Below, one piece after another: positions 1,854-51,984 of a stretch of DNA of 64,000 nt (positions are counted from its first letter, which is position 1; every line of letters starts with the position of its first letter). The DNA comes from an uncultured Planctomycetaceae bacterium. Its GTDB lineage: Bacteria > Planctomycetota > Planctomycetia > Pirellulales > Thermoguttaceae. Both the position numbers and the translations under genes were made by a program. The notes beneath the pieces were generated by a model. The model was given only the letters and a program-made list of their open reading frames with translations, had not been told where the DNA came from and searched no databases. The stretch covers positions 15,469-79,468 of the forward strand of contig CAZLWV010000002.1 in the NCBI GenBank assembly GCA_964563135.1. Reading direction: 5' to 3'.

Positions 1854-3551
1854 TTGGCCAGTAGACAAATCGTCCTTTTCTCGCTCATCGTGTGTCTGCC
1901 GCTGGCGATGCTGGCATGGCTGGGATCGCGGCTTGCACGCCAGGAGCAGACGACGGCCCGGCAGCGTTTGACGGGCCTGGCCCTGGAGCGGCTCGAAGAC
2001 GTCGACCTGGTGGTCAGCAAACACTTTCGGCAACGGGAGCGAGAACTGCTCCAGTGGACCGAACTGGACAGCTACGATCCGGACCGGCTACGCCAGATCG
2101 TTCGCAGCCGGCCCGGCATCGGTCAACTGTTCGTGCTCGGTCCGGACGGCATGCTGCTCCATCCCGATCCGGCCGGCACGCTCAACGCCTCCGAACGCGA
2201 GTTCCTGCTGCAGGCCCAGCGGGCCCTCGACGACAAGGAGTTGATCCGCAGCGCAGGTGCTGACGAGAACGACGTCGTGCCTGCAGCCTACGGCTGGCAC
2301 GTTCGATATTGGGGGCCGGGGCTGAATCTCATCTTCTACCATCGCCTGGAATCGGGAAATGTCGTCGGCGTCCATGTGCCCAGATCGATGTGGATCGCCG
2401 ACCTGATCGCCGAGCTGCCCGACACTGCCCCGCCAGTCAGCTCTCGGCACGGCTCGGAAGCGCGCATCCGCCTGGTCGACTCCAGTGGGGAGGTGGTCTA
2501 CCAGTGGGGACCTTTTGAACCCGATGAAGCGGCCGAGGCTCTTGCCGCGATGCCGCTCAGCAGCCCGCTCTCCGCATGGCGGCTGGAGTACTTCGTGGAT
2601 GAGCATCAGTTCGCGGCGGTCGGCCGCAGCGCCTACTGGAGCCTCTTCTCCAGCCTGGCAGCGATCGGACTGGGGCTGATCGTGGTGGCCGCATACTTCT
2701 ATCGCGAGTATGCCCGCGAGGTGCGCGAGGCGGTCCAGCGAGTGAACTTTGTCAACCAGGTGTCTCATGAACTGAAGACGCCGCTGACCAATATCCGCAT
2801 GTACGCCGAGCTGCTCGAAGCCGACTTGGAACTGATCGATCCCAACGAGGCCGCCACGCCCCGGGGCCATCTGGAAGTGATCGTGGCCGAGAGCCAGCGG
2901 CTCAGCCGTTTGATCGGCAACGTGCTCACCTTTGCGCGTCAGGGACGCAATCAGGTCACGCTGCGCAAGACGACCGGTCGGGTCGATGAGGTGATCGCTG
3001 CCGTGGTGGAGCGTTTTCGGCCGGCTCTCGAGCAGAAGGCGGTTGAGGTTATTCTCGACCTGCAGGCCAAGGCCCTGGTGAATCTCGATGCCGACGCCTT
3101 GGAGCAGATCCTGGGGAATCTGATCAACAACGTGGAGAAGTATGCCGCCGGCGGCGGGCACATGGAAATCGTCAGCCGGCAGGACGGCTCGCAAACCGCC
3201 ATCGTGGTTGCCGATCGGGGCCCCGGCATCCCGGCGGGCTCGCGGGACAAGATCTTCCGGGCGTTCTACAGGGTCTCCGATCGCATCGAGGGGCCCACGG
3301 GCACCGGCATCGGTCTGTCGATAGCACGCAAACTGGCCCGCATGCACGGCGGCGACGTGGTTCTCCTGCCCTGTGCCACTAACCTCAGAGATCGTCACGT
3401 CTCTCACGAAGATTCGCGACCAACGGGAGCAGACCATTTCAGCGCGAGCGGTAGCTCGCTTTGGCCGGCGGCCCTGCCGCCCGGTGAAAACGGGGCCCGC
3501 TTCCAAGTCATCCTCGACACCCCAAGAGCGGAAAGCGAAGGTGCCGTTTGA
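1854..3551 (+). CDS. Membrane sensor histidine kinase (HisKA + HATPase_c)
   Basis: TTG start. N-terminal TM segment, large extracytoplasmic region, second TM segment (YWSLFSSLAAIGLGLIVVAAYFY). H-box VSHELKTPLTNI, N-box NLINNVEKYA, G1 ADRGPGIP, G2 GTGIGLSIARK. Its end overlaps the next gene by 4 nt. Confidence 0.9.
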   Translation: MASRQIVLFSLIVCLPLAMLAWLGSRLARQEQTTARQRLTGLALERLEDVDLVVSKHFRQRERELLQWTELDSYDPDRLRQIVRSRPGIGQLFVLGPDGMLLHPDPAGTLNASEREFLLQAQRALDDKELIRSAGADENDVVPAAYGWHVRYWGPGLNLIFYHRLESGNVVGVHVPRSMWIADLIAELPDTAPPVSSRHGSEARIRLVDSSGEVVYQWGPFEPDEAAEALAAMPLSSPLSAWRLEYFVDEHQFAAVGRSAYWSLFSSLAAIGLGLIVVAAYFYREYAREVREAVQRVNFVNQVSHELKTPLTNIRMYAELLEADLELIDPNEAATPRGHLEVIVAESQRLSRLIGNVLTFARQGRNQVTLRKTTGRVDEVIAAVVERFRPALEQKAVEVILDLQAKALVNLDADALEQILGNLINNVEKYAAGGGHMEIVSRQDGSQTAIVVADRGPGIPAGSRDKIFRAFYRVSDRIEGPTGTGIGLSIARKLARMHGGDVVLLPCATNLRDRHVSHEDSRPTGADHFSASGSSLWPAALPPGENGARFQVILDTPRAESEGAV

Positions 3552-4231
3552 AGGTTCTGCTGGCCGAAGACGATCGGTTTACTCGCGAGGGCCTAGCGGA
3601 GGTGCTTCGCAGCGAAGGCTACCGGGTGCTCCAGGCCGAGGACGGCGAGACGGCCTTGGAGTTGTTCCAGGCGGAACTGCCCGACTTCGTCTGCCTCGAC
3701 ATCATGATGCCGAAGCTCAGCGGATACGATACCTGCAAGAAGATGCGTGCGGCGCGGCCGCTGGTTCCGATCATCTTCATCAGTGCCAGGTCGGAAGAGA
3801 TCGACAAGGTGATCGGGCTGGAACTGGGTGCCGACGATTTCATCGTCAAGCCCTTCGGCGTGAAGGAAGTGGTGGCCCGCATCCGGGCGGTCACGCGGCG
3901 ATGCTGGGCGGCGGCGGAACCGGCAGGCCTTGACTCGTTCCGAATGGGCGACTTGGAGGTCTTTCCCCGCGAGCTTCGCGCCCGCCGGGGCAAGGTGGCG
4001 ATCGAGTTGAGCCTGCGCGACGTGAAGCTGCTGGAACTGTTCTATCGCCGCCGCGGCGAGGTTCTGAACCGCAACACGATCTTCAACCATTGCTGGGGGG
4101 AAGACTACCTGCCCAACAGCCGCACGCTCGACCAGCACATCTCGCAATTGCGCAAACGAATCGAGATCTCACCCAAGCAGCCCACGCTGATTCGCACGGT
4201 CCACGGTGCCGGGTATCGATTCGAGGGCTGA
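3548..4231 (+). CDS. OmpR/PhoB-family response regulator (receiver + winged-helix)
   Basis: Receiver signature MKVLLAEDD ... DFVCLDIMMPKLSG ... ADDFIVKPF. C-terminal winged-helix ...LDQHISQLRKRIE...IRTVHGAGYRF. The TTG start overlaps the kinase stop. Confidence 0.9.
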   Translation: MKVLLAEDDRFTREGLAEVLRSEGYRVLQAEDGETALELFQAELPDFVCLDIMMPKLSGYDTCKKMRAARPLVPIIFISARSEEIDKVIGLELGADDFIVKPFGVKEVVARIRAVTRRCWAAAEPAGLDSFRMGDLEVFPRELRARRGKVAIELSLRDVKLLELFYRRRGEVLNRNTIFNHCWGEDYLPNSRTLDQHISQLRKRIEISPKQPTLIRTVHGAGYRFEG

Positions 4232-4459
4232 CGGGATTCTTGCAGGGTTGCGCCAGCGACAGCCGCGGAAAGGTCGTTTCCTGGCACTCCGAGAAATTCC
4301 AGCGGCACACACCCGTGCAGGAACGAGGGGCTGAGAACGCTCCGGCAGCCGAAAGCGCGTGGATGCCACCTGCTGCTGCCGCGATTGCCAAAGCCTGGGG
4401 CAGCGGGCGCGGGAACTCGGCAGCGATAGGAGACGCGTTTTGACGGGGACATCGCGGTT

Positions 4460-4490
4460 CGCGGAATTCCGTCGGTGATCCGCGGAATTC
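4460..4490 (+). promoter_or_regulatory. Tandem CGCGGAATTC sites (candidate upstream activator sequence)
   Basis: The 10-mer CGCGGAATTC occurs at 4460-4469 and 4481-4490, exactly 21 bp apart. Each is centred on a GAATTC dyad. The sites lie about 105-135 bp upstream of the sigma-54-type promoter. Confidence 0.35.
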
Positions 4491-4593
4491 TGCGGGATCG
4501 TGGGCACGGCGGGGGCTGGCCGGCGGCGGAGTGGGAGTCGTAAATGTCAATCTGGTAACTGGTTGTGTGGAATCGAGGTGGTCGGTCCCTGTT

Positions 4594-4609
4594 TGGCACA
4601 TTCATTGCT
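4594..4609 (+). promoter_or_regulatory. Sigma-54 (RpoN) -24/-12 promoter upstream of hdrC
   Basis: TGGCACATTCATTGCT matches the TGGCAC-N5-TTGCW consensus with canonical GG (4595-4596) to GC (4607-4608) spacing. It lies 93 nt upstream of the hdrC ATG. It overlaps a 12-bp perfect palindrome, ATTGCTAGCAAT (4604-4615). I saw no other full match in the window on either strand. Confidence 0.6.
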
Positions 4610-4701
4610 AGCAATTGCCGCGACCAACACGCATGTGACGCCGTGTTGTGAGAGAAAATCACAAGCCACCAGGGCCTGACGTTAGAAGCCGGAGGGAGTT
4701 G

Positions 4702-5274
4702 ATGACCACCCAACAGGCCGACAAGCTCGGTTCCGAGTTCTTGAAGGAAGTGATCGACGGGACCCCGGGCGGTGAACGGATCGTTCACTGTCTGCAGTGC
4801 GGGAGTTGCGGCGGCAGTTGCCCGAGCGGGGCCGACATGCAGCACACGCCGCGGACCCTGTTTGCCTTGATCACCGCGAACAAACGCGAGGAAGTGCTCA
4901 CGTCGAACACGATGTGGTGCTGTGTTTCGTGCTATTTCTGCACGACCCGGTGCCCGCAGAACATTCCGATCACCGACATTCTGTACCAGCTCAAGCGGAT
5001 GGCGATCGCCGAGAACAAGGCGACCGGGAGCGATGCCCCGGCGCTGGCCAAGACCTTCACGGACTACGTGGACAAGTACGGCCGAGCCTACGAGTTGGGT
5101 CTGGCGAGCCGGTTCTACCTGCTCAACAAGCCGTTCGCGATGCTGAAGATGGGTCCGATGGGCATTGGGATGTTCAGCCGGGGCCGCATGGCGCTGGTTC
5201 CGACGAAGATCAAACGCATGGACCAACTGAAAGCCATCATCAAGAAAGCCCGAGAGATTGGGAGGGAATCGTGA
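4702..5274 (+). CDS. hdrC: Heterodisulfide reductase subunit C-like (2x[4Fe-4S] ferredoxin-type)
   Basis: ATG at 4702 preceded by GGAGGGAG. Two cluster motifs, CLQCGSCGGSCP and CVSCYFCTTRCP. About 190 aa. The stop overlaps the hdrB start (GTGA). Confidence 0.85.
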   Translation: MTTQQADKLGSEFLKEVIDGTPGGERIVHCLQCGSCGGSCPSGADMQHTPRTLFALITANKREEVLTSNTMWCCVSCYFCTTRCPQNIPITDILYQLKRMAIAENKATGSDAPALAKTFTDYVDKYGRAYELGLASRFYLLNKPFAMLKMGPMGIGMFSRGRMALVPTKIKRMDQLKAIIKKAREIGRES

Positions 5275-6155
5275 AATACGCGTACTATCCTGGCTGCTCG
5301 ATGGAAGTGAACGGCGCCGCCTACGACATGTCGATGCGCGGAGTCGCGAAGATCCTCGGGATCGAGTTTGCCGAAATCGACGACTGGAACTGCTGCGGGG
5401 CGACCGAGTACTTCTCGCAGGATGAACTGACGGCTGCATCGGTGGTGGCGAGGAACCTGGCGATTGCCAGTTGCGGCGCCGGTCAGCTTGTGGCCTCCTG
5501 CGCCGCCTGCTACTGCAACCTGGCGAAGGTCGACAAGCTGATGACCGATGAGCCGGAAATGGGCGAGAAGATCAACCGGGCCCTGGCGGCCGGCGACCTG
5601 AAATACAAGGCGGGGAGCGTCAAGGTCCGCTATCTGCTCGACGTGCTCGTCCGCGACATTGGCGAGGAGAAGATCAAGGAGAAGGTGGTCCGCCCGCTCA
5701 AGGGCCTGCGGGTCGCCCCGTACTACGGCTGCCAGGCGGTTCGTCCGATTTCGGCGGGCGACTGCACCGAGTATCCGATGCAGATGGACACGCTGTTCGA
5801 GTGGCTGGGCGCCGAGGTGGTGGATTACCCGGTGAAGGCTCACTGCTGCGGCGGACACATGCCGCAGATCAGCGAAGAGCAGGCCTTCGAACTGCAACGG
5901 CGGCTGCTGCAGAGCGCGGTCGACTACAAGGCCGACATGATCCTCTGCATGTGCCCGATGTGCCAGTTGAATCTCGATGCGTACCAGCCGCGAGTGAACG
6001 GCATGTTCGGCACGAATTTCAAGATGCCGATCATCTACTTCACGCAACTGGTCGGGGTCGCGTTCGGGATGGACCCGAAGGCGGCCGGTTTTGGCAAGGA
6101 GCTTGTGGCAGGGTTGCCGGTGCTCAAGAAGAAGCTGGAGGCCGTGTCTGCTTAG
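5271..6155 (+). CDS. hdrB: Heterodisulfide reductase subunit B-like (two CCG domains)
   Basis: GTG at 5271 preceded by GGGAGGGA, inside track ORF 4797-6155. VKYAYYPGCS N-terminus. Two Cys-rich CCG motifs (DWNCCGATEYF and AHCCGGHMP) plus CMCPMCQLN. Confidence 0.85.
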   Translation: MKYAYYPGCSMEVNGAAYDMSMRGVAKILGIEFAEIDDWNCCGATEYFSQDELTAASVVARNLAIASCGAGQLVASCAACYCNLAKVDKLMTDEPEMGEKINRALAAGDLKYKAGSVKVRYLLDVLVRDIGEEKIKEKVVRPLKGLRVAPYYGCQAVRPISAGDCTEYPMQMDTLFEWLGAEVVDYPVKAHCCGGHMPQISEEQAFELQRRLLQSAVDYKADMILCMCPMCQLNLDAYQPRVNGMFGTNFKMPIIYFTQLVGVAFGMDPKAAGFGKELVAGLPVLKKKLEAVSA

Positions 6156-6189
6156 GACACCCTGAGAGAATATTCAGTGGAGGACGACC

Positions 6190-8226
6190 ATGGCCGAGAG
6201 AGTCGGCGTTTACATTTGTCACTGCGGCAGCAACATTGCCGGGACGGTCGACGTTGAAGAGGTCGCCAAGTGGGCGGGCGAGACCATCCAAGACGTTGTC
6301 GTGGCGAAAGACTATAAGTTCATGTGTTCCTCCCTCGGCCAGGCGATGATCGAGGAGGATATCAAGAAGGAGAAGCTCACCCGCGTTGTCGTGGGGGCGT
6401 GCTCTCCGCACCTGCACGAGAAGACGTTCCGCACGGCGTGCAAGAACGCGGGTCTGAACCCGTACCTGTTCGACATGACGAACCTCCGCGAGCACGTCTC
6501 GTGGGTCTGCAACGACAAGGCGGCGGGCACCGCGAAGGCCAAGGCGCTGATTGCCGGTTCGGCGGAACGGGTGAAGTACCAGCAGCCGCTGGAGCCGAGC
6601 TACGTGAACGTTCACCCGGCCACGCTGGTCGTGGGAGGGGGCATCACCGGCCTGCAGGCGGCGCTGGAGCTGGCCGACGCGGGCCATCCGGTGTATCTGG
6701 TGGAACGGAGCCCCTCGGTGGGCGGCCACATGGCCCAGTTCGACAAGACGTTTCCGACCCTCGACTGCTCGGCGTGCATTCTGACGCCGAAGATGTCGGA
6801 GGCCGGCCAGCACGAAAACATCACCATGCTGACCTACTCCGAGCTGGAGGAGGTGAGCGGGTCGGTGGGCAAGTTCAAGGTTAAGATCCGCAAGAAGGCT
6901 CGCTACGTGGTCGAGAAAGACTGCACGGGCTGCGGAATTTGCATGGAGAAGTGCCCGCGCAAGATCGTGGACGAGGATTTCGAGGCGGGGATCGGGTACC
7001 GGAAGGCGATCTACACGCCGTTTCCCCAGGCGGTGCCGCGGACCCCGGTGATCGACGTGCAGAACTGCACCTACTTCCAGCGGGGCAAGTGCAAGGTCTG
7101 CTCGAAGGTTTGTCCGACGAACGCGATCGACTACGAGCAGCAGGACGAGATCATCGAGATCGAGGTGGGCAACATCATTCTGGCCACCGGCTGGAAGCTG
7201 TTCGACCTGAAGAAGATTCCCCAGTACGGCTACGGGCGGCTGGCGAACGTATTCACGAACATGGAGTTTGAACGATTGTGCAACGCGGCCGGCCCGACGG
7301 GCGGCAAGATCGTGCTGCGCGACGGCAAGACGGAGCCGAAGTCGGTGGCGATCATCCACTGCGTGGGGAGCCGCGATGTGAAGTACAACGCCCACTGCTC
7401 GGCCGTGTGCTGCATGGCGGCGCTCAAGTTTGGGCACCTGATTCTGGAGAAGACCAAGGCCGAGGTGTACTCGTTCTACATCGACATGCGGACGAACCAG
7501 AAGGCCTATGAGGAGTTCTATCAACGGCTGCTCGAAGAGGGCATGCACTTCGTGCGCGGCAAGGTGGCCGAGGTGACCGACGCGGCGCGGAATCCTGACG
7601 AGCAGGGCAAGCTGATCGTGCAGTGCGAAGACACGCTGCTGGGCAAGCAGCGGCGGATCCCAGTCGACATGGTGGTGCTGATGGGCGCCATCGAGCCCCA
7701 GGCGGACGCCAAGGAACTGGGCCTGAAGTGCGGCATCTCGTGCAGCATGGCGGGTTGGTACACCGAGCGTCATCCGAAGCTGGACCCGGTGGCCACGATG
7801 ACCGAGGGCGTGTTTGTGGCCGGCACCTGCCAGGGGGCGAAGGACATTCCGGCCTGCGTGGCCCAGGGGGCCGCGGCGGCCGCCCGGGTGCAGGGAATGA
7901 TCACCAAGGGCAAGGTGATGATCGAGCCGATCGTGGCGTCGATCAACGAAGAGGCCTGCTCGGGATGCCGGATCTGCAACAATCTCTGCCCCTACAATGC
8001 GATCGAGTTCGACGCGGTGAAGGGAACCAGCCACGTGGTCAGCTCGATGTGCAAGGGCTGCGGCACCTGCGTGGCGGCCTGCCCGGCGGGCGTGATCACG
8101 GGGGCCCACTTCAACAACCAGCAGATATTCGCCCAGATCGGCGGCGTTCTCTGGGACGCCAAGCCGGCGGGTGGAAACGGCGGGGCTGCGGCCAAAGCCT
8201 CCGAGTCCCAGCCGGTTGCATCCTGA
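6190..8226 (+). CDS. hdrA: Heterodisulfide reductase subunit A-like flavoprotein (FAD + multiple [4Fe-4S])
   Basis: N-terminal VGVYICHCGSNIAG. Dinucleotide fold VVGGGITGLQAALELADAGHPVYLVE. Ferredoxin motifs CTGCGICMEKCP, CKVCSKVCP, CSGCRICNNLCP and CKGCGTCVAACP. 678 aa. Confidence 0.9.
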   Translation: MAERVGVYICHCGSNIAGTVDVEEVAKWAGETIQDVVVAKDYKFMCSSLGQAMIEEDIKKEKLTRVVVGACSPHLHEKTFRTACKNAGLNPYLFDMTNLREHVSWVCNDKAAGTAKAKALIAGSAERVKYQQPLEPSYVNVHPATLVVGGGITGLQAALELADAGHPVYLVERSPSVGGHMAQFDKTFPTLDCSACILTPKMSEAGQHENITMLTYSELEEVSGSVGKFKVKIRKKARYVVEKDCTGCGICMEKCPRKIVDEDFEAGIGYRKAIYTPFPQAVPRTPVIDVQNCTYFQRGKCKVCSKVCPTNAIDYEQQDEIIEIEVGNIILATGWKLFDLKKIPQYGYGRLANVFTNMEFERLCNAAGPTGGKIVLRDGKTEPKSVAIIHCVGSRDVKYNAHCSAVCCMAALKFGHLILEKTKAEVYSFYIDMRTNQKAYEEFYQRLLEEGMHFVRGKVAEVTDAARNPDEQGKLIVQCEDTLLGKQRRIPVDMVVLMGAIEPQADAKELGLKCGISCSMAGWYTERHPKLDPVATMTEGVFVAGTCQGAKDIPACVAQGAAAAARVQGMITKGKVMIEPIVASINEEACSGCRICNNLCPYNAIEFDAVKGTSHVVSSMCKGCGTCVAACPAGVITGAHFNNQQIFAQIGGVLWDAKPAGGNGGAAAKASESQPVAS

Positions 8227-8345
8227 GGCCACTGACGAGACGAGCACACTGCCCAGAGCGGGGCAAGCCCGCAACCCAACCTTCGCAAGATCCTGCGTGC
8301 ACGATGCGCACAAATCCAGAACCAAGACTCTAAAAGGTTTTGAGA

Positions 8346-8843
8346 ATGAATAACGAGAACTTTGAACCAAAGATCGTGGGGTTCATGTGCAACTGGTGCT
8401 CCTACCGGGCCGCCGACCTGGCGGGCTCGGCGCGCATCAAGTACCCGCCCAACGTGCGCATCATTCGCGTGATGTGCAGCGGCCGGATGGATCCCGCCTT
8501 CGTCACCAAGGCGCTCTCGCTGGGGGCCGACGGCGTGATGCTGGCCGGCTGCCATCCGGGGGAGTGCCACTACATCGACCAGAACTACAAGGCGATGCGG
8601 CGCTACCACATGCTCAAGCACATGCTGGCCGCCATGGGCGTGGAAGACGAGCGGGTCCGCCTGTTCTGGCGTTCGGCGGCCGAGGGGGAGCAGCTTGCCG
8701 AGGCCATCACGGAGTTCGTGGCGGACATCAAGAAGCTCGGTCCGCTCAACTGGCCCGGTAACTGGGAAGAGAGCGACGAGCGTCTGGAAGCGCTGGAAGC
8801 GATCGTCAAAGAGCACGCAGAGGTGATGGAGGTGCAGTCATGA
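8346..8843 (+). CDS. mvhD: Methyl-viologen-reducing hydrogenase delta subunit (MvhD-like, [2Fe-2S])
   Basis: IVGFMCNWCSYRAADLAG ... VMCSGRMDP ... LAGCHPGECHY signature. ATG at 8346 (the track ORF starts at the TTG at 8340). The stop overlaps the next start (ATGA). Confidence 0.85.
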   Translation: MNNENFEPKIVGFMCNWCSYRAADLAGSARIKYPPNVRIIRVMCSGRMDPAFVTKALSLGADGVMLAGCHPGECHYIDQNYKAMRRYHMLKHMLAAMGVEDERVRLFWRSAAEGEQLAEAITEFVADIKKLGPLNWPGNWEESDERLEALEAIVKEHAEVMEVQS

Positions 8844-9817
8844 GCGAAGGCAAGGCAAAAGGCAAGCTGGCGGTCTACTGGGCTGCTTCGTGCGGCGGCT
8901 GCGATATCTCCACGCTCGGGATCGATACCAAGATCCTGGATGTTGCCGAGCACTTCGACATCGTCATGTGGCCCTGTGCCGCCGACGGCAAGGTGCACGA
9001 TATCGAGAAGATGGCCGACGGCGAGATCGACGTCTGCCTGTTCAACGGTGGTATCCGCACCAGCGAGCAGGAGTACATGGCTCGGCTCCTGCGGCAGAAG
9101 GCGAAGGTCCTGGTGGCGTTTGGTTCGTGTGCTTCCGAGGGTTGCATTCCCGGACTGGGCAACATGAACGACAAGGCGAGCTGCTTCCAGACCGTGTATC
9201 ACGACAGCCCTTCGCTCGATAATCCGAAAGGGATCGAGCCCCAGCCGGAGACCGAGATGCCGGAGGGCAAGCTCCATTTGCCGGTCTACTACGACACCTT
9301 GAAGACGCTCAATCAGACCGTGCCGGTCGACTACTTCCTTCCGGGCTGCCCGCCGGAATCCGACCGGATCTGGGACGCGATCGTGGCGATCCTGGAAAGC
9401 AAGCTTCCGGCGCCGGGTTCCACGATCGGGTCGAACACGACCGTTTGCGACGAGTGCCCCCGCAAGCGGGAGGAGAAGAAGATCAAGAAATTCTACCGGA
9501 CTTGGGAAATCGAGGTGGATCCGGACCGCTGCCTGCTGGAGCAAGGCCTTCTGTGCGCCGGGATCGCCACACGAGCAGGCTGCGGCGCCCTATGCCCGCA
9601 GGTCAATTCGCCCTGCATCGGTTGCTACGGTCCCAACAACGGTGTCGAGGACCACGGGATGCAGTTACTGAGTGCGGTGGCCTCCGTGATTGACTCGGAG
9701 AATCCCGACGAGATCAATGCGATCATCAAGGAGGGCATTCCCGATCCGGTCGGCAGCTTCTATCGGTTCAGCCTGGCCCAGAGCAATCTGCGGCGCAAGA
9801 ACAAGGCAGGAGTATAA
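8840..9817 (+). CDS. mvhG: [NiFe] hydrogenase small subunit, Mvh/F420-non-reducing type
   Basis: N-terminal AASCGGCDIS proximal-cluster motif with no Tat signal. C-terminal Cys clusters (CDECP; CLLEQGLLCAGIATRAGCGALCP...CIGCYGP). Translationally coupled to mvhD and 3 nt from mvhA. Confidence 0.85.
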   Translation: MSEGKAKGKLAVYWAASCGGCDISTLGIDTKILDVAEHFDIVMWPCAADGKVHDIEKMADGEIDVCLFNGGIRTSEQEYMARLLRQKAKVLVAFGSCASEGCIPGLGNMNDKASCFQTVYHDSPSLDNPKGIEPQPETEMPEGKLHLPVYYDTLKTLNQTVPVDYFLPGCPPESDRIWDAIVAILESKLPAPGSTIGSNTTVCDECPRKREEKKIKKFYRTWEIEVDPDRCLLEQGLLCAGIATRAGCGALCPQVNSPCIGCYGPNNGVEDHGMQLLSAVASVIDSENPDEINAIIKEGIPDPVGSFYRFSLAQSNLRRKNKAGV

Positions 9818-9820
9818 ACG

Positions 9821-11287
9821 ATGAAACGAATCTCGATCGATCCCATTACCAGGCTGGAAGGCCACGGCAAGATCGACATCTTCCTCAACGAGGAAGGCGA
9901 CGTGGCCAATTGTTATTTGCAGATTCCGGAATTGCGAGGCTTCGAAAAGTTCTGCGTGGGACGTGCGGCGGAGGATATGCCGAACCTGACGAACCGGATT
10001 TGCGGCGTGTGCCCCGAGGCGCACCATATGGCGGCCACCAAGGCGCTGGACAAGGTTTGGGGCGTCGATCCGCCCCCGGCCGCCAAGAAACTCCGGGAGA
10101 TGTTCTACAACATCTTCTTCGCCACCGACCACACGACGCACTTCTACGCCCTGGGCGGTCCCGACTTTGTGGTTGGTCCCGATGCACCGCCGGCGGAGCG
10201 GAATGTGCTGGGCGTGATCAAGAAGGTGGGCATGGACGTGGGGGGCAAGGTGCTGAAGATGCGCCGCGACGGCCACGCCCTGATCAAGATGCTCGGCGGG
10301 CGGCCGGTCCACCCCAACTGGGGCCTGCCCGGCGGCGTCAGCCGCGGCATCAACGAGGAGCAACGCAAGGAGATCGAGGCCCGCGGGCGGGAAGCGATCG
10401 AGTTTGCCAAGTTCTCCCTGCAGGTCTTCGACGACATCGTGTTGAAGAACAGCGCCTACGTCGACCTCATTACCGGCGGCGTCTACACCCACCAGACGTA
10501 CAACATGGGTACGGTCGACGAGAACAACAAGGTCAACTTCTATGACGGCAAGATCCGCGTGGTCGGGCCGGATGGAAAGGAGCTGGTCAAGTACGACGCG
10601 AAGGACTACCAGAAGCACATTGCCGAACGCGTAGAGCCCTGGTCGTACCTCAAGTTCCCCTATCTCAAGGCCGTCGGCTGGAAGGGTTTTGTGGACGGGA
10701 AGGATTCCGGGGTCTACAAGGCAACGCCACTGTCGCGTTTGAACGCGGCCGACGGCATGGCGACCCCGCTGGCCCAGGAGCAGTACGAGAAGATGTACTC
10801 GACCCTGGGGGGTAAGCCGGTACATCACACGCTGGCGACCCACTGGGCCAGGCTGGTCGAGCTGCTCTACGCGACCGAGCGCTGGGTGCAGTTGGCCACC
10901 GACCCGGAAATCACCAGCGACAAGTTCCGCACCTTGCCGACGGAAACGCCCCGCGAGGGAGTCGGCTGCGTCGAGGCCCCGCGGGGGACCCTGACCCATC
11001 ACTATGTGACCGACGAACGCGGCATCCTCACGAACGTGAACCTGATCGTGGGCACGACGAACAACAATGCCCCGATCTGCATGTCGGTGAAGAAGGCGGC
11101 CGAGGGTCTGATCAAGAAGGGCAAGGTTTCCGAGGGGCTGCTGAACATGGTCGAGATGGCGTTCCGGGCCTACGATCCGTGCTTTGGCTGCGCCACCCAC
11201 AGCCTGCCCGGCCAGATGCCGCTGGAAATACGTCTCCGCAATCCCGAGGGAGAGGTGATCGAGAAGCTCTCCCAGTATGTGGACTGA
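9821..11287 (+). CDS. mvhA: [NiFe] hydrogenase large subunit, Mvh/F420-non-reducing type
   Basis: PITRLEGHG, N-terminal Ni-binding RICGVCPEAH, and C-terminal DPCFGCATHS followed by a 27-aa tail of the kind removed by a maturation endopeptidase. Confidence 0.9.
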   Translation: MKRISIDPITRLEGHGKIDIFLNEEGDVANCYLQIPELRGFEKFCVGRAAEDMPNLTNRICGVCPEAHHMAATKALDKVWGVDPPPAAKKLREMFYNIFFATDHTTHFYALGGPDFVVGPDAPPAERNVLGVIKKVGMDVGGKVLKMRRDGHALIKMLGGRPVHPNWGLPGGVSRGINEEQRKEIEARGREAIEFAKFSLQVFDDIVLKNSAYVDLITGGVYTHQTYNMGTVDENNKVNFYDGKIRVVGPDGKELVKYDAKDYQKHIAERVEPWSYLKFPYLKAVGWKGFVDGKDSGVYKATPLSRLNAADGMATPLAQEQYEKMYSTLGGKPVHHTLATHWARLVELLYATERWVQLATDPEITSDKFRTLPTETPREGVGCVEAPRGTLTHHYVTDERGILTNVNLIVGTTNNNAPICMSVKKAAEGLIKKGKVSEGLLNMVEMAFRAYDPCFGCATHSLPGQMPLEIRLRNPEGEVIEKLSQYVD

Positions 11288-11308: not shown

Positions 11309-11349
11309 GGCCGGGCGATCGGCTGAGAATGGTCGCCCGGCCTTTTTTG
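11309..11349 (+). terminator. Rho-independent terminator after mvhA
   Basis: 10-bp perfect stem GGCCGGGCGA (11309-11318) / TCGCCCGGCC (11333-11342), followed by TTTTTTG. It begins 22 nt after the mvhA stop. Confidence 0.75.
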
Positions 11350-11613: not shown

Positions 11614-12156
11614 ATGAAGACTCTCATTCTCGGCCTCGGAAACTGGATCGTCGCCGACGACAGCGTGGGTCTGCACGTGGCGGCGCGGCTGCGGGAACTC
11701 CTGGCGGATCGCGACGACGTGGATGTGGGTGAAGACTACTGGGGCGGGCTGCGACTGATGGAACGGCTCGAGGGTTACGATCGGGCGATCGTGATCGATG
11801 CGATCGTCACCGGGGCGGAGCCGGGTACGATCCACCTTCTCACTCCGGACGCGATTCCGACCCAGCGGAGCAGTTCGGCTCACGACGTGAACCTGCCGAC
11901 GGCCCTGGCCTTCGGCCGCCAGGCGGGTGTGAGCCTGCCGGCGGACAAGGACATCCAGCTTGTCGGCATCGAGGCGCAGGATATATTGACGTTTACGGAG
12001 GAGTGCACCCCCGCCGTGGCGGCATCGATCCCCAAGGCCGTCGAGGAGGTGCTCAAGTTGTTGACAACCGGGAAGGCAGGGGACCAAAGGGAAACGTTGC
12101 CCGCTCCGGTCCCAAGGGCATCGGGTCACAAAGGAGACGGACATGATATCGCCTGA
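11614..12156 (+). CDS. Hydrogenase maturation endopeptidase (HycI/HoxM/FrhD family)
   Basis: MKTLILGLGNWIVADDSVGLHVA N-terminus, conserved internal D (VIDAI) and late H (SSSAHDV). About 180 aa. Confidence 0.8.
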   Translation: MKTLILGLGNWIVADDSVGLHVAARLRELLADRDDVDVGEDYWGGLRLMERLEGYDRAIVIDAIVTGAEPGTIHLLTPDAIPTQRSSSAHDVNLPTALAFGRQAGVSLPADKDIQLVGIEAQDILTFTEECTPAVAASIPKAVEEVLKLLTTGKAGDQRETLPAPVPRASGHKGDGHDIA

Positions 12157-12589
12157 ATCGCTGCGTCGGTACCATTACTTCGCCAACATCGGTGAGGCAA
12201 GCCTGAAGGCTTTGGCGATGATCGCCGAAGAGAAGGACGTTCCGGCGGGAACGGAGATGTTTCGCGAGGGGGACCCGGCCAACACGCTGCACGTCATCAC
12301 GCAAGGAGAGGTCGAGATCCGCTACGTGCTGGGCACAGGAGAAGAGCGGACGGTCGACACGCTCGTGGGTGGAGAGCTTCTTTGCTGGTCGGCCCTGATC
12401 GAGCCCTACAAGGCCACGGCCATCGGTACAACCGTGAAGGATACCCACTTGATCTGCCTCGACGCCAAGAAGGTTCGCGAACTGTGCGAGGCGGAACCGC
12501 TGCTCGGTTTCCAGCTCACCAAGGCGATTGCCAAGCTGCTGGCCCAGCGGCTGGAGAGCGCCCGGGTCCAGTTGGCGGCGGTGGACTGA
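12143..12589 (+). CDS. Stand-alone cyclic-nucleotide-binding (CAP effector-type) domain protein, no DNA-binding domain
   Basis: ATG preceded by AAGGAG. Its start overlaps the protease gene by 14 nt. cNMP-fold signature FREGDPANTLHVITQGEVEI ... GGELLCWSALI ... C-helix. Only 148 aa, with no HTH. Confidence 0.75.
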   Translation: MISPESLRRYHYFANIGEASLKALAMIAEEKDVPAGTEMFREGDPANTLHVITQGEVEIRYVLGTGEERTVDTLVGGELLCWSALIEPYKATAIGTTVKDTHLICLDAKKVRELCEAEPLLGFQLTKAIAKLLAQRLESARVQLAAVD

Positions 12590-12604: not shown

Positions 12605-13003
12605 ATGCACGAAGTATCGATCGTTGAAGCTCTGATCGAGCAAGTGGAAGTGGAAGTCTCGCGAGCCGGGGCATCAGGCCGGGTGACCCGGCTCGGCTTG
12701 TCGATCGGGCGTCTTTCGGGGGTCCAGGCCGACTCGATCCGGTTTGCCTTCGACCTGCTCTCCCCCGGCACGCTGCTGGAAGGGGCGAGGCTGGAAATCG
12801 AGGAGCCCCGCGCTATCTGCCTCTGCGCGGCGTGCGGCGCGAGCACAGAACTCGAGGAGCTTTGGCTTCATTGTCCGGTCTGCGGCAGCCCGGATATCCG
12901 GGTTCAAGGCGGTCAGGAGATGCTCCTGGAGACGATCGACATCGACGAGGAGACAGCCGACCCTTGTCGCGGTGCGGGAAATCCGCAAGAATCAGGGGGT
13001 TAG
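12605..13003 (+). CDS. hypA: Hydrogenase nickel incorporation protein HypA
   Basis: MHE N-terminal Ni motif. Zn site CAACG...17 aa...CPVCGS. Typical length. Confidence 0.9.
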   Translation: MHEVSIVEALIEQVEVEVSRAGASGRVTRLGLSIGRLSGVQADSIRFAFDLLSPGTLLEGARLEIEEPRAICLCAACGASTELEELWLHCPVCGSPDIRVQGGQEMLLETIDIDEETADPCRGAGNPQESGG

Positions 13004-13033: not shown

Positions 13034-13687
13034 ATGATGAAAATTGTTGCCGCGAAGAAGATCCTCAAAGCCAACGATCAATTGGCGGAGGAGAATCGTC
13101 GCCGTCTGAACGCGGCGGGGGTGTTCGGCGTCAATATCGTCGGATCACCGGGCTGCGGGAAGACCACCTTTCTGGAGAACCTGTTCTCCCAGTTGGGCAA
13201 GGGCATAGCCCCGGCGGTGATCGAGGGGGATATTGCCAGTTCGATCGACGCCGAGCGGATCGACGCCCTGGGGGTGCCGGTGGTGCAGATCAACACGGAC
13301 GGGGCCTGCCACCTGGATGCGATGATGGTGCAGGCGGCCGCAGACAATTTTGACCTGCAGGCGGTCGACGTGCTGATGATCGAGAATGTGGGCAACCTTG
13401 TCTGTACGGCCGGATTCGACCTGGGGGAGCACCTGCGGATCGTGCTCCTGAGCGTTCCCGAGGGAGATGACAAGATTGCCAAGTATCCGGCCATCTTCCG
13501 GGGTTCTCACGCCCTGGCGATCACCAAGATCGAGCTGTTGCCCCACTGCGATTTTGAAGGGGCCCGGGTGCGTTCGGACATGAAAGCCCTCGCACCCGAG
13601 GCCGGCGTGTTCGAGATCTCCGCCAGGACGGGAACCGGGATGCCCGAGATTGCCGCCTGGCTGAAAGAGCGGATGCAGGGGCGGTGA
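13034..13687 (+). CDS. hypB: Hydrogenase nickel-incorporation GTPase HypB
   Basis: P-loop GSPGCGKTT, ENVGNLVC and ITKIEL (NKxD-like) motifs. No His-rich or CxxCGC N-terminal extension. Confidence 0.9.
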   Translation: MMKIVAAKKILKANDQLAEENRRRLNAAGVFGVNIVGSPGCGKTTFLENLFSQLGKGIAPAVIEGDIASSIDAERIDALGVPVVQINTDGACHLDAMMVQAAADNFDLQAVDVLMIENVGNLVCTAGFDLGEHLRIVLLSVPEGDDKIAKYPAIFRGSHALAITKIELLPHCDFEGARVRSDMKALAPEAGVFEISARTGTGMPEIAAWLKERMQGR

Positions 13688-16022: not shown

Positions 16023-18089
16023 GTGTTTGAACTGGTGAGTCCTTTCGAGCCGGCCGGCGACCAGCCCCAGGCGATCGAAGCCCTGACCGAGGGGTTGCGG
16101 CAGAAGAAGAAGTTCCAGACGCTTGTGGGCGTCACCGGGTCGGGGAAGACCTTCACCATGGCCAATGTGATCCAGCGCCTGCAGCGTCCTGCGCTGGTTC
16201 TCTCCCACAACAAGACGCTCTCGGCCCAGCTTTATGCGGAGTTTCGCGAGTTCTTTCCGAACAATGCGGTCGCCTACTTCGTCAGCTACTACGACTATTA
16301 CCAGCCGGAAGCGTATATTCCCCAGCGCGACATCTACATCGAGAAGGACGCGTCGATCAACGAGGAGATCGATCGGCTGCGGCTGGCGGCCACAAGCGCG
16401 CTGATGAGCCGGCGCGACGTGATCATTGTGGCCAGTGTTTCCTGCATTTACGGCCTGGGGTCTCCCGACGACTACCGGGAGATGATGGTGTCGCTGCGGA
16501 CGGGGCAGGAAGCGGAGCGGGATCGGATGCTCGCCCGGTTGGTCGACATCCAGTACGAACGAAACGACGTGGCGTTCGAGCGGGGCAAGTTTCGGGTTCG
16601 CGGCGACTGCGTCGAAGTTTTTCCGTCGTACGAAGAGTTTGCCGTGCGCATCGAATTCTGGGGGGACGAGGTGGAGCAACTCTCCCGCATCAACCCGACC
16701 AGCGGTGAGGTGCTCAGCCGCCAGGAGGAGCTCTACATCTATCCGGCCAAGCATTTCGTACTCCCCGATGAACGCGTGAAGCGGGCCGTGGAAGAGATTC
16801 ACCAGGAATTGGCCGAGAGGCTCGACCAGCTTCGCAAGCAGGGAAAACTGCTGGAAGCACAGCGTTTGAGCGCCCGAACGCGTTTTGACCTGGAAATGCT
16901 GCAGGAGGTAGGTTACTGCCCGGGGATCGAGAATTATAGCCGTCCGCTGTCGGGGCGTCCGCCGGGGTCGCCGCCGGATACGCTGTTCAGTTTCTTCCCG
17001 GACGATTACCTGCTGTTCGTCGACGAGTCGCACGTGACGGTTCCGCAGGTGCGGGCGATGCATTCCGGGGATCAGAGCCGGAAGTCGACCCTGGTCGAGC
17101 ATGGATTCCGGCTGCCGAGCGCGCTGGACAATCGGCCGCTCAAGTTTGACGAGTGGGAGCAGCGGATCCATCAGGTGGTCTTCGTGTCGGCGACTCCGGG
17201 GCCCTACGAGCTGGACAGGTCGAAGGGAGCGATCGTGGAGCAGTTGATCCGGCCGACGGGCCTGCTGGATCCGCTTGTGGAGGTGGTTCCCGCCCGTGGG
17301 CAAGTGGCCCATCTTCTGGAGCAGATCCGTCAGCGGGCCGAGGCGGGGGAGCGCGTGCTGGTGACCACGCTGACCAAGCGCATGGCGGAGGACCTGGCCG
17401 ACTACTTCGGCAAGCAGGACGTTCGCTGCAAGTGGCTGCACAGCGAGCTCGACGCGTTTGAGCGGGTGGAGCTCCTGCGCGACCTGCGCGAGGGGCATTT
17501 CGACGTGCTCGTGGGGGTCAACCTGCTCCGCGAGGGGCTGGACCTGCCGGAGGTCTCGCTGGTGGCCATCCTGGATGCCGACAAGGAGGGATTCCTGCGG
17601 AGCGAGACGTCGCTGATGCAGACCATCGGGCGTTCGGCCCGCAACGTGAACGCCAAGGTGATTCTCTATGCCGACACGATGACCGACTCGATGCAGCGGG
17701 CCATCGAGGAGACCCGTCGGCGGCGTGCGATGCAGCAGGAGTACAATGAGCAACACGGAATCACCCCGGAGACGATCCGCAAGAGCATTCGAAGAGGGAT
17801 CGAAGCTGAGGCGGCGGCCCATGCCAGCTCCAACGCCGCCGTGGGACGGGACGACGAAGCCCGATTCATCACGGAAGAGTACCTGGACGAGCTGGAGCAG
17901 GAGATGCTTGCCGCGGCCGAGGCGCTGGAGTTTGAACGGGCCGCGGCGCTGAGAGACCGTATCCAGCAGATGCGCGGTCAGATCGGGAAACGCACGGACG
18001 AAGCCGAAATCGATCACGCAACCCGCTCACACCGCGGACGTCGTCGCAAGAGCGGCGGATCCCGTATTCCCAAGCCGGAGAAGCCTTGA
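16023..18089 (+). CDS. uvrB: Excinuclease ABC subunit B
   Basis: PAGDQPQAI, Walker [11 protein letters not shown], the [10 protein letters not shown] beta-hairpin region, DESH box and C-terminal UVR domain ([13 protein letters not shown]). Confidence 0.95.
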
Positions 18090-18422: not shown

Positions 18423-18699
18423 AATTGCCTTTCTCGAGAAACGGTTTCAGAAGTGCCGGCACCTTCGATTCCGGCCGGCTCTGTGGATAGTTGATCCGCG
18501 AGTGCGTCCAATTATTCCATGGAAATTCCGAAATAGTGGACGGACGGGGCTGAAACCCGCTCAAGCGGGGAGTGGGTGGCGAGCCGTGGTTCCCTAAGTT
18601 CACATTTTTCGCTAATTTGGTGGAAATCGTCAGGTTTTTCCCGGGTTGCCGGGAATATTGCCTGCGGCGGGAGTCTCTCACTTGGTGGGAAGCGTTGGC

Positions 18700-19242
18700 A
18701 TGGGCGGAGATCGGGCACAACCGGAAATCACGCAGCTCGTTCTGGATCACCATCGGGAGATCTATGCATATGCCTACCGGCTGTGCGGTTCGATCGCGGA
18801 TGCGGAAGACCTGAGCCAATCGGTCTTCCTGACGGCACACGAGAAACTGGAGCAATTGCGCAATTCGGGAAATGTGCGAGGGTGGCTATTCGCCATCCTG
18901 CGAAGCCATTTTCTCAAGCTTTGCCGAAAGAGGCGGCCGATTCCGGCGGCGGCCCTTGAGATGAATTTTGACGAACTTGTCGGTCGGGTGGATGCGCCGG
19001 TCGATTTCGACCGGGAGGCGCTCGAGGATGCGTTGGCCGGTCTGCCGGAAAACCATCGCATGGTGCTGGTGATGTTTTATTTCGAGCAGTGCAGCTATCA
19101 AGAGATTGCCGAGCAACTCGAGATGCCGATGGGCACGGTCATGAGTCGGCTGGCGCGAGCAAAGGCCCGGCTGCGGGCGGAGTTGACACGTCGGGAGCAG
19201 GGCCAGTCGACTCCTGTCAGTCCTCCGACGGGTAAAGGGTGA
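18700..19242 (+). CDS. ECF-type RNA polymerase sigma factor
   Basis: Region 2 (YAYAYRLCGSIADAEDLSQSVFL) and region 4 (MVLVMFYFEQCSYQEIAEQLEMPMGTVMSRLARAKARL). The ATG at 18700 is preceded by GGTGGGAAG (the track ORF starts at 18646). Confidence 0.85.
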   Translation: MGGDRAQPEITQLVLDHHREIYAYAYRLCGSIADAEDLSQSVFLTAHEKLEQLRNSGNVRGWLFAILRSHFLKLCRKRRPIPAAALEMNFDELVGRVDAPVDFDREALEDALAGLPENHRMVLVMFYFEQCSYQEIAEQLEMPMGTVMSRLARAKARLRAELTRREQGQSTPVSPPTGKG

Positions 19243-19246
19243 CGCC

Positions 19247-20038
19247 ATGGATGAACGTCGCATTTGGACTGAGGAACAAATGGAGACGCTGGAGGCGCTT
19301 CGATCGAAGGACGAGGCGGCGAGCCAACCAGGGTTTGCCTCGATGGCCGAGGCGTTGGCAAGAGACCCTGGGCTGGCGCAGCGGCTCGATGCGATCCTCG
19401 CATGGGACGCACGTCTGGTCGAGGCCATGAGGGATGTGCCTGTTCCGCCGGGGCTGGCCGAGCAGATTCTTCAGGGGCTGGAAGATGCGGGTGAGCGTCC
19501 GACGCGGACGGCGGGTGGGGTGGCTGGTCGTTCATGGCGGAGGCGGCGGTTTGCGTGGGCCGCGGTCGCGGCAGGGATTGGGGTGGCGGCGGTCGTGATT
19601 GCGGCCGTCATGCTGAACCGACTGCCCACGATGAGTCCGGAATGGCTTCGTTCCGTGGCCCGCGACCGATCTGTGGTCACTCGAGGAACCCCGCCAACCG
19701 GGGCGACGGCGGAGAGTCCTCCAGACCGTTTCCCTTACAGCACCGATCTGTTGTTCCCTGACGGCGTGCAGTGGCGCCGGGTGGCGGATTTTGACCGTGC
19801 TGAGGCGGTGGCCTACGACATCCCCATGCGGCCGGGGCAGAAAGCGACGCTGTATGTCGTTCGGTGCCGATCCGATGCCCCTCTTCCGACAAGGGTGCCG
19901 GGCACTCCACAAATGCGGACCCAGGGCCTTGCCGTTTCCGCGTGGCAGGGGGCAGGTGTTGTGTACGTGCTGGTTGTGGAGGGGGATGAGGCGGATTACG
20001 GCAGGATTCTCAAGTCGCGGGCACAAGGTCTGGCCTGA
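19247..20038 (+). CDS. Putative single-pass anti-sigma factor
   Basis: Starts 4 nt after the sigma factor gene. Cytoplasmic N-domain, one TM segment (FAWAAVAAGIGVAAVVIAAVML) and an extracytoplasmic C-domain. No HxxxCxxC zinc motif. Confidence 0.6.
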   Translation: MDERRIWTEEQMETLEALRSKDEAASQPGFASMAEALARDPGLAQRLDAILAWDARLVEAMRDVPVPPGLAEQILQGLEDAGERPTRTAGGVAGRSWRRRRFAWAAVAAGIGVAAVVIAAVMLNRLPTMSPEWLRSVARDRSVVTRGTPPTGATAESPPDRFPYSTDLLFPDGVQWRRVADFDRAEAVAYDIPMRPGQKATLYVVRCRSDAPLPTRVPGTPQMRTQGLAVSAWQGAGVVYVLVVEGDEADYGRILKSRAQGLA

Positions 20039-45325: not shown

Positions 45326-45368
45326 TCGGGCTCGGAAAATCCGACGGTTGGATGGTTGATCGCAGTCT

Positions 45369-46463: not shown

Positions 46464-46707
46464 CCCCCGGTTGAGTGGGCGCATCCAACCAGCAACGGAC
46501 CTGTTCTTGCAGGTCCAAGCTGGTACGAATAGGACAATTCCGGCAATAATTGGGGATCCTTCGGGAAACAACCGCTGCTGCCCGATGGTGGCCATTCCGA
46601 TCTGCCAAGAAGTCTTGCAGAGAAGGCCAGCCGGTTGCGACTCGAAACCGTCCCAGGCGATCGATTCCATTCCCAGTAACCCGTTCCAGGGAGGGGACGA
46701 AGTGACC

Positions 46708-51652: not shown

Positions 51653-51984
51653 TGCCTTTCCGATCGCTTGTCGACAGTCCGCCCACGCAGGGCTCCACCC
51701 GGCTTGCCTGCCAGGACTGTGTCTGGATGTCCCAAAAGGGGCTTCGCCTACCATTTCAGAAGCACGTATTTTAGAGAGAAGGCAACGGAAAACCAACGGG
51801 TCCGAACCGTTCTGAGTCTGCTGAGAACGTGTGGCAGAAAAATACTTACCAGAAAACGCGAACTATCTTGCCGATCCGCCCGTAATGAAAGCTGTCGGAC
51901 ACGACAAGCACCTCCGTCAGCCTGCGGACCGCTCCCCCATCCGGCGGCTGTCGGCTCAAACCTCCTGTTGTGCAATCTCCCCCC

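Follow-up and report, generated by a model that had tools for sequence, protein, structure and literature searches.

The closest described relatives of the locus analyzed here are the heterodisulfide reductase-hydrogenase complexes (HdrABC-MvhAGD) of methanogens, solved for Methanothermococcus thermolithotrophicus (5ODC/5ODR; related structures 8RVU, 9SW2, 7BKB, and 9SFI), and bacterial gene clusters that combine hdr genes with those of a group 3c [NiFe]-hydrogenase. The role of Hdr-Mvh outside methanogens is a recognized question that extends to Asgard archaea, Bathyarchaeota, Chloroflexota, and sulfate reducers. Among the complete genomes that encode Mvh, 26% are bacterial, and a 'unique functional role' has been suggested there (PMC6085437). 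A group 3c [NiFe]-hydrogenase of the cultured planctomycete Thermogutta terrifontis was published in 2017 (PMC5673643), and no biochemically characterized member of the bacterial group 3c/Hdr enzymes was found in the searched literature. Here we analyze a 64,000-nt stretch of contig CAZLWV010000002.1 from an uncultured Planctomycetaceae bacterium (hereafter, the window), which carries a six-gene operon, hdrCBA-mvhDGA, at positions 4702-11287 (Table 1).

By analogy with the methanogen complex, this operon probably encodes a cytoplasmic six-subunit complex of the HdrABC-MvhAGD type that would take electrons from H2 and bifurcate them to ferredoxin and to an acceptor other than the heterodisulfide of coenzyme M and coenzyme B (CoM-S-S-CoB). 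The six genes are intact and co-directional, and all junctions read as claimed in an earlier interpretation of the DNA letters (hereafter, the sequence-only reading), which had given the overall span, shared direction, overlaps, and gaps of the genes. The hdrC and hdrB genes overlap by GTGA (5271-5274, read from the sequence) and mvhD and mvhG by ATGA (8840-8843); the spacing is 34 nt between hdrB and hdrA, as given by the coordinates, 119 nt between hdrA and mvhD with the ATG at 8346 as the start (a TTG at 8340 is an alternative), and 3 nt between mvhG and mvhA. For hdrC, the start at 4702 is favored over a GTG at 4648 because the ribosome-binding site GGAGGGAG precedes the 4702 ATG. In the terminator scan, the total number of hits was not above chance, and the hairpin behind mvhA was by far the strongest. 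Given the overlapping or short junctions, the ribosome-binding sites, and this strong terminator, the six genes look like one transcription unit, predicted to yield a single transcript. The promoter scan of the window produced hits not above chance, and the tRNA and Rfam scans of the window produced no match.

Table 1. Features of the operon and of other parts of the window, with predicted roles
Feature	Coordinates	Strand	Description
Sensor histidine kinase	1854-3551	+	HisKA and HATPase_c (Pfam)
OmpR-type response regulator	3548-4231	+	Response_reg and Trans_reg_C (Pfam); 470 nt upstream of hdrC
Shine-Dalgarno-like GGAGGGAG	4690-4697	+	4 nt upstream of the hdrC ATG
hdrC	4702-5274	+	Subunit with two [4Fe-4S] clusters, predicted electron carrier from HdrA to HdrB
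hdrB	5271-6155	+	Predicted catalytic subunit, two CCG domains with a noncubane [4Fe-4S] site in each
hdrA	6190-8226	+	Flavin adenine dinucleotide (FAD) subunit, predicted site of electron-pair splitting
mvhD	8346-8843	+	[2Fe-2S] subunit, predicted adaptor from the hydrogenase to HdrA
mvhG	8840-9817	+	Cytoplasmic [NiFe]-hydrogenase small subunit, three [4Fe-4S] sites, no twin-arginine translocation (Tat) signal
mvhA	9821-11287	+	[NiFe]-hydrogenase large subunit, group 3c-related
Intrinsic terminator	11309-11348	+	13-bp stem with 10 G-C pairs, then TTTTTT; 21 nt past the mvhA stop codon
Maturation endopeptidase, HycI/HybD family (hycI)	11614-12156	+	TIGR00072, 115 bits, above cutoff
Stand-alone cyclic nucleoside monophosphate (cNMP)-binding-domain protein	12143-12589	+	148 aa; Pfam cNMP_binding, 53 bits
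hypA	12605-13003	+	Nickel metallochaperone of hydrogenase maturation; TIGR00100, 93 bits, above cutoff
hypB	13034-13687	+	Nickel-inserting GTPase of hydrogenase maturation; TIGR00073, 248 bits, above cutoff
Extracytoplasmic function (ECF) sigma factor	18646-19242	+	
DUF1559 with N-methyl motif	34672-35676		
FG-GAP/ASPIC (CRTAC1-like)	35947-37584		
DUF1559 with N-methyl motif	39346-40530		

Genes of the window were called via third-position GC content and scanned with Pfam and NCBIfam, covering approximately 60 open reading frames (ORFs), and each of the six Hdr/Mvh proteins was compared with all solved structures. The profile searches and the structure alignments agree with the subunit identities previously assigned from motifs, namely, HdrC, HdrB, HdrA, MvhD, a small subunit without a Tat signal, and a large subunit. 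Five of the six match the chains of HdrABC-MvhAGD over almost their full length, as the best or near-best solved-structure match, the match of HdrC being partial. HdrC contains a Pfam Fer4 dicluster domain (NCBIfam TIGR03290, 81 bits against a cutoff of 160); its top solved-structure matches are the HdrC chains 8rvv_C (71 bits) and 5odc_C, over residues 21-129 only, and both of its CxxCxxCxxxCP motifs align with the solved chains. HdrB, with two Pfam CCG stretches (TIGR03288, 187 bits against a cutoff of 345), aligns over its full length with methanogen HdrB chains (156 bits to 5odc_B and 157 bits to 9sfi_C; 1e-44), and all 10 ligand cysteines of the CCG clusters are present, so that both cluster sites are intact, in line with the two CCG motifs of the sequence-only reading.

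HdrA (NF040770, 792 bits against a cutoff of 1100; residues 3-656 aligned to 5odc_A with 686 bits) consists of an N-terminal cluster domain, a thioredoxin-reductase-like FAD domain, an inserted ferredoxin domain, and a C-terminal ferredoxin domain. The aligned motifs include the N-terminal cluster cysteines, the FAD-adjacent CxxC, four ferredoxin CxxCxxCxxxC motifs, two of these in the inserted domain (approximately residues 244-310), and the CC-containing cluster motif. The inserted domain has been named as the ferredoxin-binding site of HdrA, and E356 and K409 of the M. thermolithotrophicus reference separate bifurcating from non-bifurcating HdrA flavins (PMC9430772); in the alignment to 5odc_A, these two residues correspond to E361 and K413 of the window protein. 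MvhD (Pfam FlpD, 180 bits; 166 bits to 8rvu_F and 156 bits to 5odc_D) has five conserved cysteines aligned with the solved chains. MvhG (NCBIfam VhuG, 223 bits; 214 bits to 5odc_E over residues 9-314) aligns at all 12 cysteines of the proximal, medial, and distal [4Fe-4S] clusters, and its N-terminus, MSEGKAKGKLAVYW, contains no RRxF twin-arginine motif. In MvhA (NCBIfam VhuA, 378 bits), the L1 motif RICGVCPEAHH lies toward the N-terminus and the L2 motif DPCFGCATH, read as RAYDPCFGCATH, near the C-terminus; the MvhA motifs have been defined as ICGxCxxxH and AYDPCxxCATH (Poudel et al. 2018, PMC6085437). Both also fit the general L1 and L2 patterns of group 3c, RxCGxCxxxH and DPCxxCxxH, which provide four metal-binding cysteines. 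The L2 motif is followed by a 27-residue C-terminal extension that is presumed to be cleaved.

In the comparison with solved structures, MvhA scored 388 bits with HydL (7t2r_D), 380 bits with MvhA (5odc_F), 322 bits with the NAD-linked HoxH, 111 bits with FrhA, and 98 bits with a group 3b enzyme. In a neighbor-joining tree with a small set of five structure-derived references, the bacterial clade and MvhA/VhuA are separated from HydL and HoxH in approximately 99% of the 200 bootstraps. Together with the long, three-cluster small subunit and the linkage to mvhD, located between hdrA and mvhG, and to hdrA, which is kept in relatives, this tree placement supports a large subunit of the group 3c type, in line with the class expected in the sequence-only reading. 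An NAD-linked hydrogenase of the Bfu type, as the 388-bit match to HydL would have it, was considered and rejected on the grounds of the small-subunit type, the lack of HydABC genes, and the tree. The enzyme in question, NiFe-HydABCSL (7T2R) from Acetomicrobium mobile, belongs to the Bfu family and bifurcates with NAD and ferredoxin. Its large subunit is, by a small margin, the top structure match and has a similar C-terminal extension; its small subunit (7t2r_E) is short and aligns to the N-terminal part of the window MvhG only, with 82 bits, and none of its NuoEFG-like HydABC genes is represented in the window.

With the solved methanogen complex as the template, we infer complex formation, bifurcation, the ferredoxin partner, which chemical class the acceptor belongs to, and which way the reaction runs in vivo. 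In this scheme, H2 would be split at the [NiFe] site of MvhA, and electrons would reach the FAD of HdrA by way of MvhG, with its three [4Fe-4S] clusters, and then MvhD, with its [2Fe-2S] cluster; at the FAD, the electron pair would be bifurcated. One electron would travel uphill to ferredoxin via the ferredoxin domain inserted in HdrA; its counterpart would travel downhill, over both clusters of HdrC, to the pair of noncubane [4Fe-4S] clusters in HdrB, the subunit that would reduce the high-potential acceptor. The overall reaction is expected to be reversible.

To survey the distribution of the module, one genome per GTDB species was scanned. This resulted in at least 599 pattern matches, and at least 592 species-representative genomes encode a relative of the window MvhA. 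The best 80 of these relatives, with 73-93% MvhA identity (hereafter, the related loci), come almost exclusively from metagenome-assembled genomes (MAGs) of Planctomycetota (Thermoguttaceae, Pirellulales) and Chloroflexota (Anaerolineales). Where the contig is long enough, most of the related loci keep the order hdrC-hdrB-hdrA-mvhD-mvhG-mvhA, with hycI and the gene of the cNMP-domain protein usually coming next. The conservation of the gene order in dozens of species from two phyla argues that the genes form a functional unit. Rarity was overrated in the sequence-only reading: the module is widespread in Planctomycetota and Chloroflexota, a group 3c enzyme has been on record since 2017, and bacterial Mvh-Hdr has already been discussed. 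When Planctomycetota loci are compared with Chloroflexota loci, the identity of the HdrA-MvhDGA core amounts to 66-82%, a level that seems high for two phyla and suggests older transfers of the core between them. HdrC and HdrB of the related loci fall into three identity classes, of roughly 60-88%, 51-56%, and 36-48%, so the high-potential HdrCB module seems to have been exchanged independently of the core.

A second, paralogous type of module was detected in 13 of the related loci, mostly from Planctomycetota MAGs (L024:867-11455, L011, L022, L031, L032, L033, L038, L044, L045, L049, L052, L056, and L062), and is not represented in the window. It encodes an HdrD-like protein (466 aa, with ferredoxin and CCG domains), EtfB, EtfA, and a 742-aa HdrD/EtfD-like protein, followed by HdrA, MvhD, MvhG, and MvhA. 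Its HdrA is 53% and its MvhA approximately 80% identical to those of the window. Two MAGs carry both module types (L002/L032 and L003/L031).

The identity of the acceptor hinges on HdrB. In 5ODR, CoM is contacted at its sulfonate by the backbone NH groups of Gly46 and Gly198, and CoB at its carboxylate by Arg201 and at its phosphonate by Arg14 and Arg240 (PMC13261682). When the four distinct methanogen HdrB sequences with structures were compared, each had Arg14 and Arg201, and three had Arg240. The window HdrB has Asn14, Pro198, and Ala237 at the positions of Arg14, Arg201, and Arg240, respectively, and Glu in place of Gly46; the equivalent of Gly198 is the only contact kept. The CoM-site loop, CCPAPG in methanogens, reads CCGATE, and the loop past the second CC is two residues shorter. 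The substitutions extend to the entire group: all 47 bacterial HdrBs of the related loci lack Arg at the equivalents of positions 14, 201, and 240, whereas the ten cysteines are invariant in the window protein, 46 relatives, and the 4 methanogen references. In type 1 of the bacterial HdrBs, to which the window protein belongs, CCGATE and CC-GHM[T/P] replace CCPAPG and CCGAGGGVR; a second subtype, from Chloroflexota, has CCGAT[TA] and CC-GSL[IL]. A wide search of 1.84 billion representative proteins with HdrB yielded 534 clusters at E <= 1e-30. Every representative of the best 150 of these clusters outscores the methanogen HdrBs, and, among the 135 full-length representatives, Arg201 is found in none, Arg14 in 6, and Arg240 in 3. 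The HdrBs of this clade thus have lost every charged contact to CoB and kept the catalytic clusters along with a conserved pocket of their own, which is a useful addition to what is known of these enzymes.

With the CoB-binding residues gone, the acceptor is not expected to be CoM-S-S-CoB, which strengthens the earlier suggestion of an acceptor other than the methanogen heterodisulfide, all CoB-binding arginines of HdrB being replaced. Judged by its signature residues, the complex would be bifurcation-competent and is not a CoM-S-S-CoB reductase. Because the catalytic clusters are kept and the CoM-S-S-CoB site is lost, annotation of these proteins as CoB-CoM heterodisulfide reductase (EC 1.8.98.5 type) is unsuitable. 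The opposite explanation, a true heterodisulfide reductase encoded either on an archaeal contig that was mis-assembled or mis-binned or by a bacterium that makes or scavenges the coenzymes, would account for an overall architecture identical to that of the methanogen enzyme and for the name 'F420-non-reducing hydrogenase' that source databases give to the relatives. However, apart from the altered pocket, all hits of the six proteins fall short of the NCBIfam equivalog cutoffs, no genes for CoM or CoB synthesis are found in the window, and the closest relatives of MvhA, like those of UvrB, all belong to Planctomycetota, which makes this explanation extremely improbable.

As had been proposed, the host is a planctomycete and not an archaeon; it is Thermoguttaceae-like. 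For UvrB (16023-18089), encoded on the same 141,363-bp contig as MvhA, every named relative comes from a MAG assigned to Thermoguttaceae, Pirellulales, or Planctomycetota; the operon has genes that are hallmarks of planctomycetes on its flanks; and the GC content is even across the window. The neighboring DUF1559, CRTAC1-like, and ECF sigma factor genes, on which the sequence-only reading had based its host assignment, were confirmed by the family scans, which also revealed TPR-cytochrome c proteins.

Another disulfide or a persulfide is the most likely acceptor; it could belong to a small thiol cofactor or to a carrier protein, for example, one resembling DsrC/TusE or thioredoxin. Among the approximately 60 ORFs of the window, no match was obtained to DsrC, Flx, Qmo, lipoate-binding, or CoM/CoB-synthesis families; for DsrC, Flx, Qmo, and CoM/CoB genes, this agrees with what had been noted from the letters. 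Conservation of neighbors was assessed by clustering ORFs of at least 90 aa across the 80 related loci and their 10-kb flanks. Only four genes, namely, hycI, that of the cNMP-domain protein, hypA, and hypB, proved to be conserved neighbors of the hdrCBA-mvhDGA module; the other recurrent clusters are Chloroflexota regulators or genes of the Etf-linked module. Because the operon is not accompanied by any acceptor gene, the electrons probably go to a thiol/disulfide couple of general cellular use or to a protein whose gene lies in another part of the genome.

Several points weigh against the assignment of the operon to an H2-oxidizing, disulfide-reducing complex. The window MvhA is only approximately 40% identical to methanogen MvhA, and the NCBIfam equivalog cutoffs are missed throughout, so the six proteins are relatives of the methanogen enzymes and not orthologs by the NCBI criteria. 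The activity of the entire bacterial clade is assigned by analogy. None of the candidate carriers or partners, that is, DsrC/TusE, thioredoxin, a lipoate-binding protein, Flx, or Qmo, is conserved beside the operon in the related loci. Furthermore, HdrB scores 180 bits with the model of SdhE, a subunit of 8-methylmenaquinol:fumarate reductase, compared with 187 bits for the HdrB model, and this near equality leaves some room for a non-disulfide acceptor. Finally, fermentative H2 production by Thermogutta terrifontis hints at the direction of H2 evolution.

The SdhE score is compatible with an arrangement in which HdrBC acts without a free disulfide and delivers electrons to a non-sulfur acceptor (quinone) or to a separately encoded partner, as proposed for the acetogen MetFV-HdrCBA-MvhD. 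The HdrB pocket is unlike that of methanogens at all tested contacts except for the Gly198 equivalent, and the HdrCBA-MvhD of Sporomusa ovata interacts with MetFV, the tested disulfides having no effect (PMC9430772). In other Planctomycetota, the HdrA-MvhDGA core is joined to EtfAB and HdrD-like proteins instead of HdrCB, so the high-potential branch appears to be exchangeable. Nevertheless, we regard this arrangement as quite unlikely: the noncubane sites, whose known chemistry is sulfur-sulfur cleavage, are strictly conserved in all 47 relatives; no membrane subunit, MetFV, or other partner gene is conserved beside the module in the related loci; and there is no Tat signal in the six proteins, although no search for transmembrane helices was made.

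A different possibility, less probable than not but to be taken seriously, retains the disulfide chemistry and concerns the direction. The same complex could run backwards as a confurcating, H2-evolving enzyme of fermentation that oxidizes reduced ferredoxin together with a thiol or a reduced carrier protein and disposes of reducing equivalents while partner organisms keep H2 low. The fermentative H2 of Thermogutta terrifontis has been attributed to group 3c [NiFe]- and/or [FeFe]-hydrogenases (PMC5673643), an attribution that is itself inferred from the genome. Group 3 hydrogenases are described as bidirectional in the HydDB table, and the closest relative of the window locus (L001) as well as several other loci derive from anaerobic-digester MAGs, judged by the isolate names. 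We estimate a mean potential of approximately -330 mV for ferredoxin and a thiol couple, so that H2 could be released only while its pressure is low. Confurcation, however, requires a route for re-reduction of the disulfide, and none was identified. We tentatively favor oxidation of H2, with bifurcation to ferredoxin and a disulfide-type acceptor, as the direction for the operon.

Downstream of the terminator, a second unit contains the genes for the protease, the cNMP-domain protein, HypA, and HypB; the presence of hypA, hypB, and a protease gene dedicated to the hydrogenase speaks in favor of the proposed complex. The HycI/HybD-family protease, whose gene is placed after mvhA in most of the related loci, is expected to remove the C-terminal extension of MvhA. 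The cNMP-domain protein consists of this single domain, without an output domain. The start of its gene overlaps the protease stop by 14 nt, suggestive of translational coupling, and, in at least 37 of the 80 related loci, with both Planctomycetota and Chloroflexota represented, the gene is kept after that of the protease. The phosphate-binding cassette of the protein, inspected by eye, reads GELL...PYKATA, with Lys-Ala at the place of the Arg-Ser of CAP, so the ligand of the domain may not be a cyclic nucleotide. One could speculate that the entire Planctomycetota/Chloroflexota clade serves a single undiscovered high-potential acceptor shared by these anaerobic heterotrophs, whether a thiol cofactor of a new kind or a carrier protein dedicated to it, with the cNMP-domain protein as a clade-specific regulator or assembly factor. 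We consider this unlikely; if true, a major, so far unrecognized part of the coupling between H2 and ferredoxin in soils, sediments, and digesters would run through the complex.

Upstream of the operon, the histidine kinase gene probably lies outside the conserved module: it is absent upstream of hdrC in the closest relative and in most of the other loci. The position of the response regulator gene upstream of hdrC is not conserved among relatives either, and the OmpR-type protein is a possible local regulator of the operon. The 470 nt between this gene and hdrC (4232-4701) are non-coding, with no Rfam match or above-chance promoter-like hit.

Elsewhere in the window, the ECF sigma factor gene (18646-19242, + strand) is followed, after 4 nt, by an ORF of 263 aa without a Pfam match (19247-20038, + strand), a layout typical of a sigma/anti-sigma pair. 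A 680-aa protein with TPR and two cytochrome c domains (41365-43407, - strand) is encoded next to a 654-aa ORF without a Pfam or NCBIfam match (43715-45679, - strand). At a distance of 35 kb from the Hdr operon, with no link to it found, the window encodes a DsbD-like membrane protein of 791 aa for thiol:disulfide interchange (46396-48771, + strand), which has DsbD_N, DsbD_TM, and thioredoxin-like domains. An AIR-synthase-like gene (50588-51796) was considered as a candidate for HypE or SelD and rejected, the product being PurM. Recent horizontal acquisition of the operon was considered as well, and no sign of it was found, the GC content and the third-position GC content of the operon matching those of the rest of the window.

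Compared with the methanogen HdrABC-MvhAGD, the window operon encodes the same six subunits and shares with that system the iron-sulfur ligands, the FAD domain, the E356/K409 signature, the inserted ferredoxin domain, the three-cluster small subunit, and the L1 and L2 motifs, HdrC being aligned over its central part only. The differences are the bacterial host, the organization of hdrCBA-mvhDGA as a single operon, and the lack of a gene for the MvhB polyferredoxin, which methanogen mvh operons carry. The window HdrB is distant from methanogen HdrB (156 bits), with differences in the Arg14, Arg201, and Arg240 contacts and in the CoM-site loop.

Other Hdr-like systems bear on the acceptor and the donor. 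Two bacterial ones, FlxABCD-HdrABC/DsrC of Desulfovibrio and sHdr-LbpA of sulfur oxidizers, are models for what the acceptor of the window complex could be: for the CCG proteins of the HdrB type in both, the proposed substrates are disulfides or persulfides carried by proteins. Genes of the flx, dsrC, lbpA, or sulfur-oxidation kind are neither present in the window nor conserved near the module in the related loci, and the short, sHdr-type HdrA (6TJR, 349 aa) matches residues 323-565 of the window HdrA only. For HdrA2B2C2 of Methanosarcina acetivorans, the model of the fused HdrA2 is the best NCBIfam match of the window HdrA (792 bits) and MvhD (188 bits). HdrA2B2C2 is a bifurcating Hdr that fuses HdrA and MvhD and is ferredoxin- and F420H2-dependent, whereas the window has separate genes and an adjoining [NiFe]-hydrogenase, so that H2 is the expected donor, rather than F420H2 or ferredoxin. 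In non-methanogenic bacteria and archaea, 29 HdrA2 homologs have been identified, and other disulfides, such as that of DsrC, have been suggested as acceptors (PMC5296606).

The bacterial Hdr-Mvh clade is very large and syntenic, and, because cultured Thermoguttaceae exist, the question of the acceptor is open to experiment. The window belongs to the same clade as the bacterial group 3c/Hdr clusters of Thermogutta terrifontis (THTE_4311-4313), sulfate reducers, and Planctomycetota and Chloroflexota MAGs, with no difference of substance. The relatives at 73-93% MvhA identity share with it the order hdrCBA-mvhDGA-hycI-cNMP and the HdrB signature, CCGATE with CC-GHM[T/P]. Thus, the window operon is one more member of a known and widespread bacterial Hdr-Mvh group.

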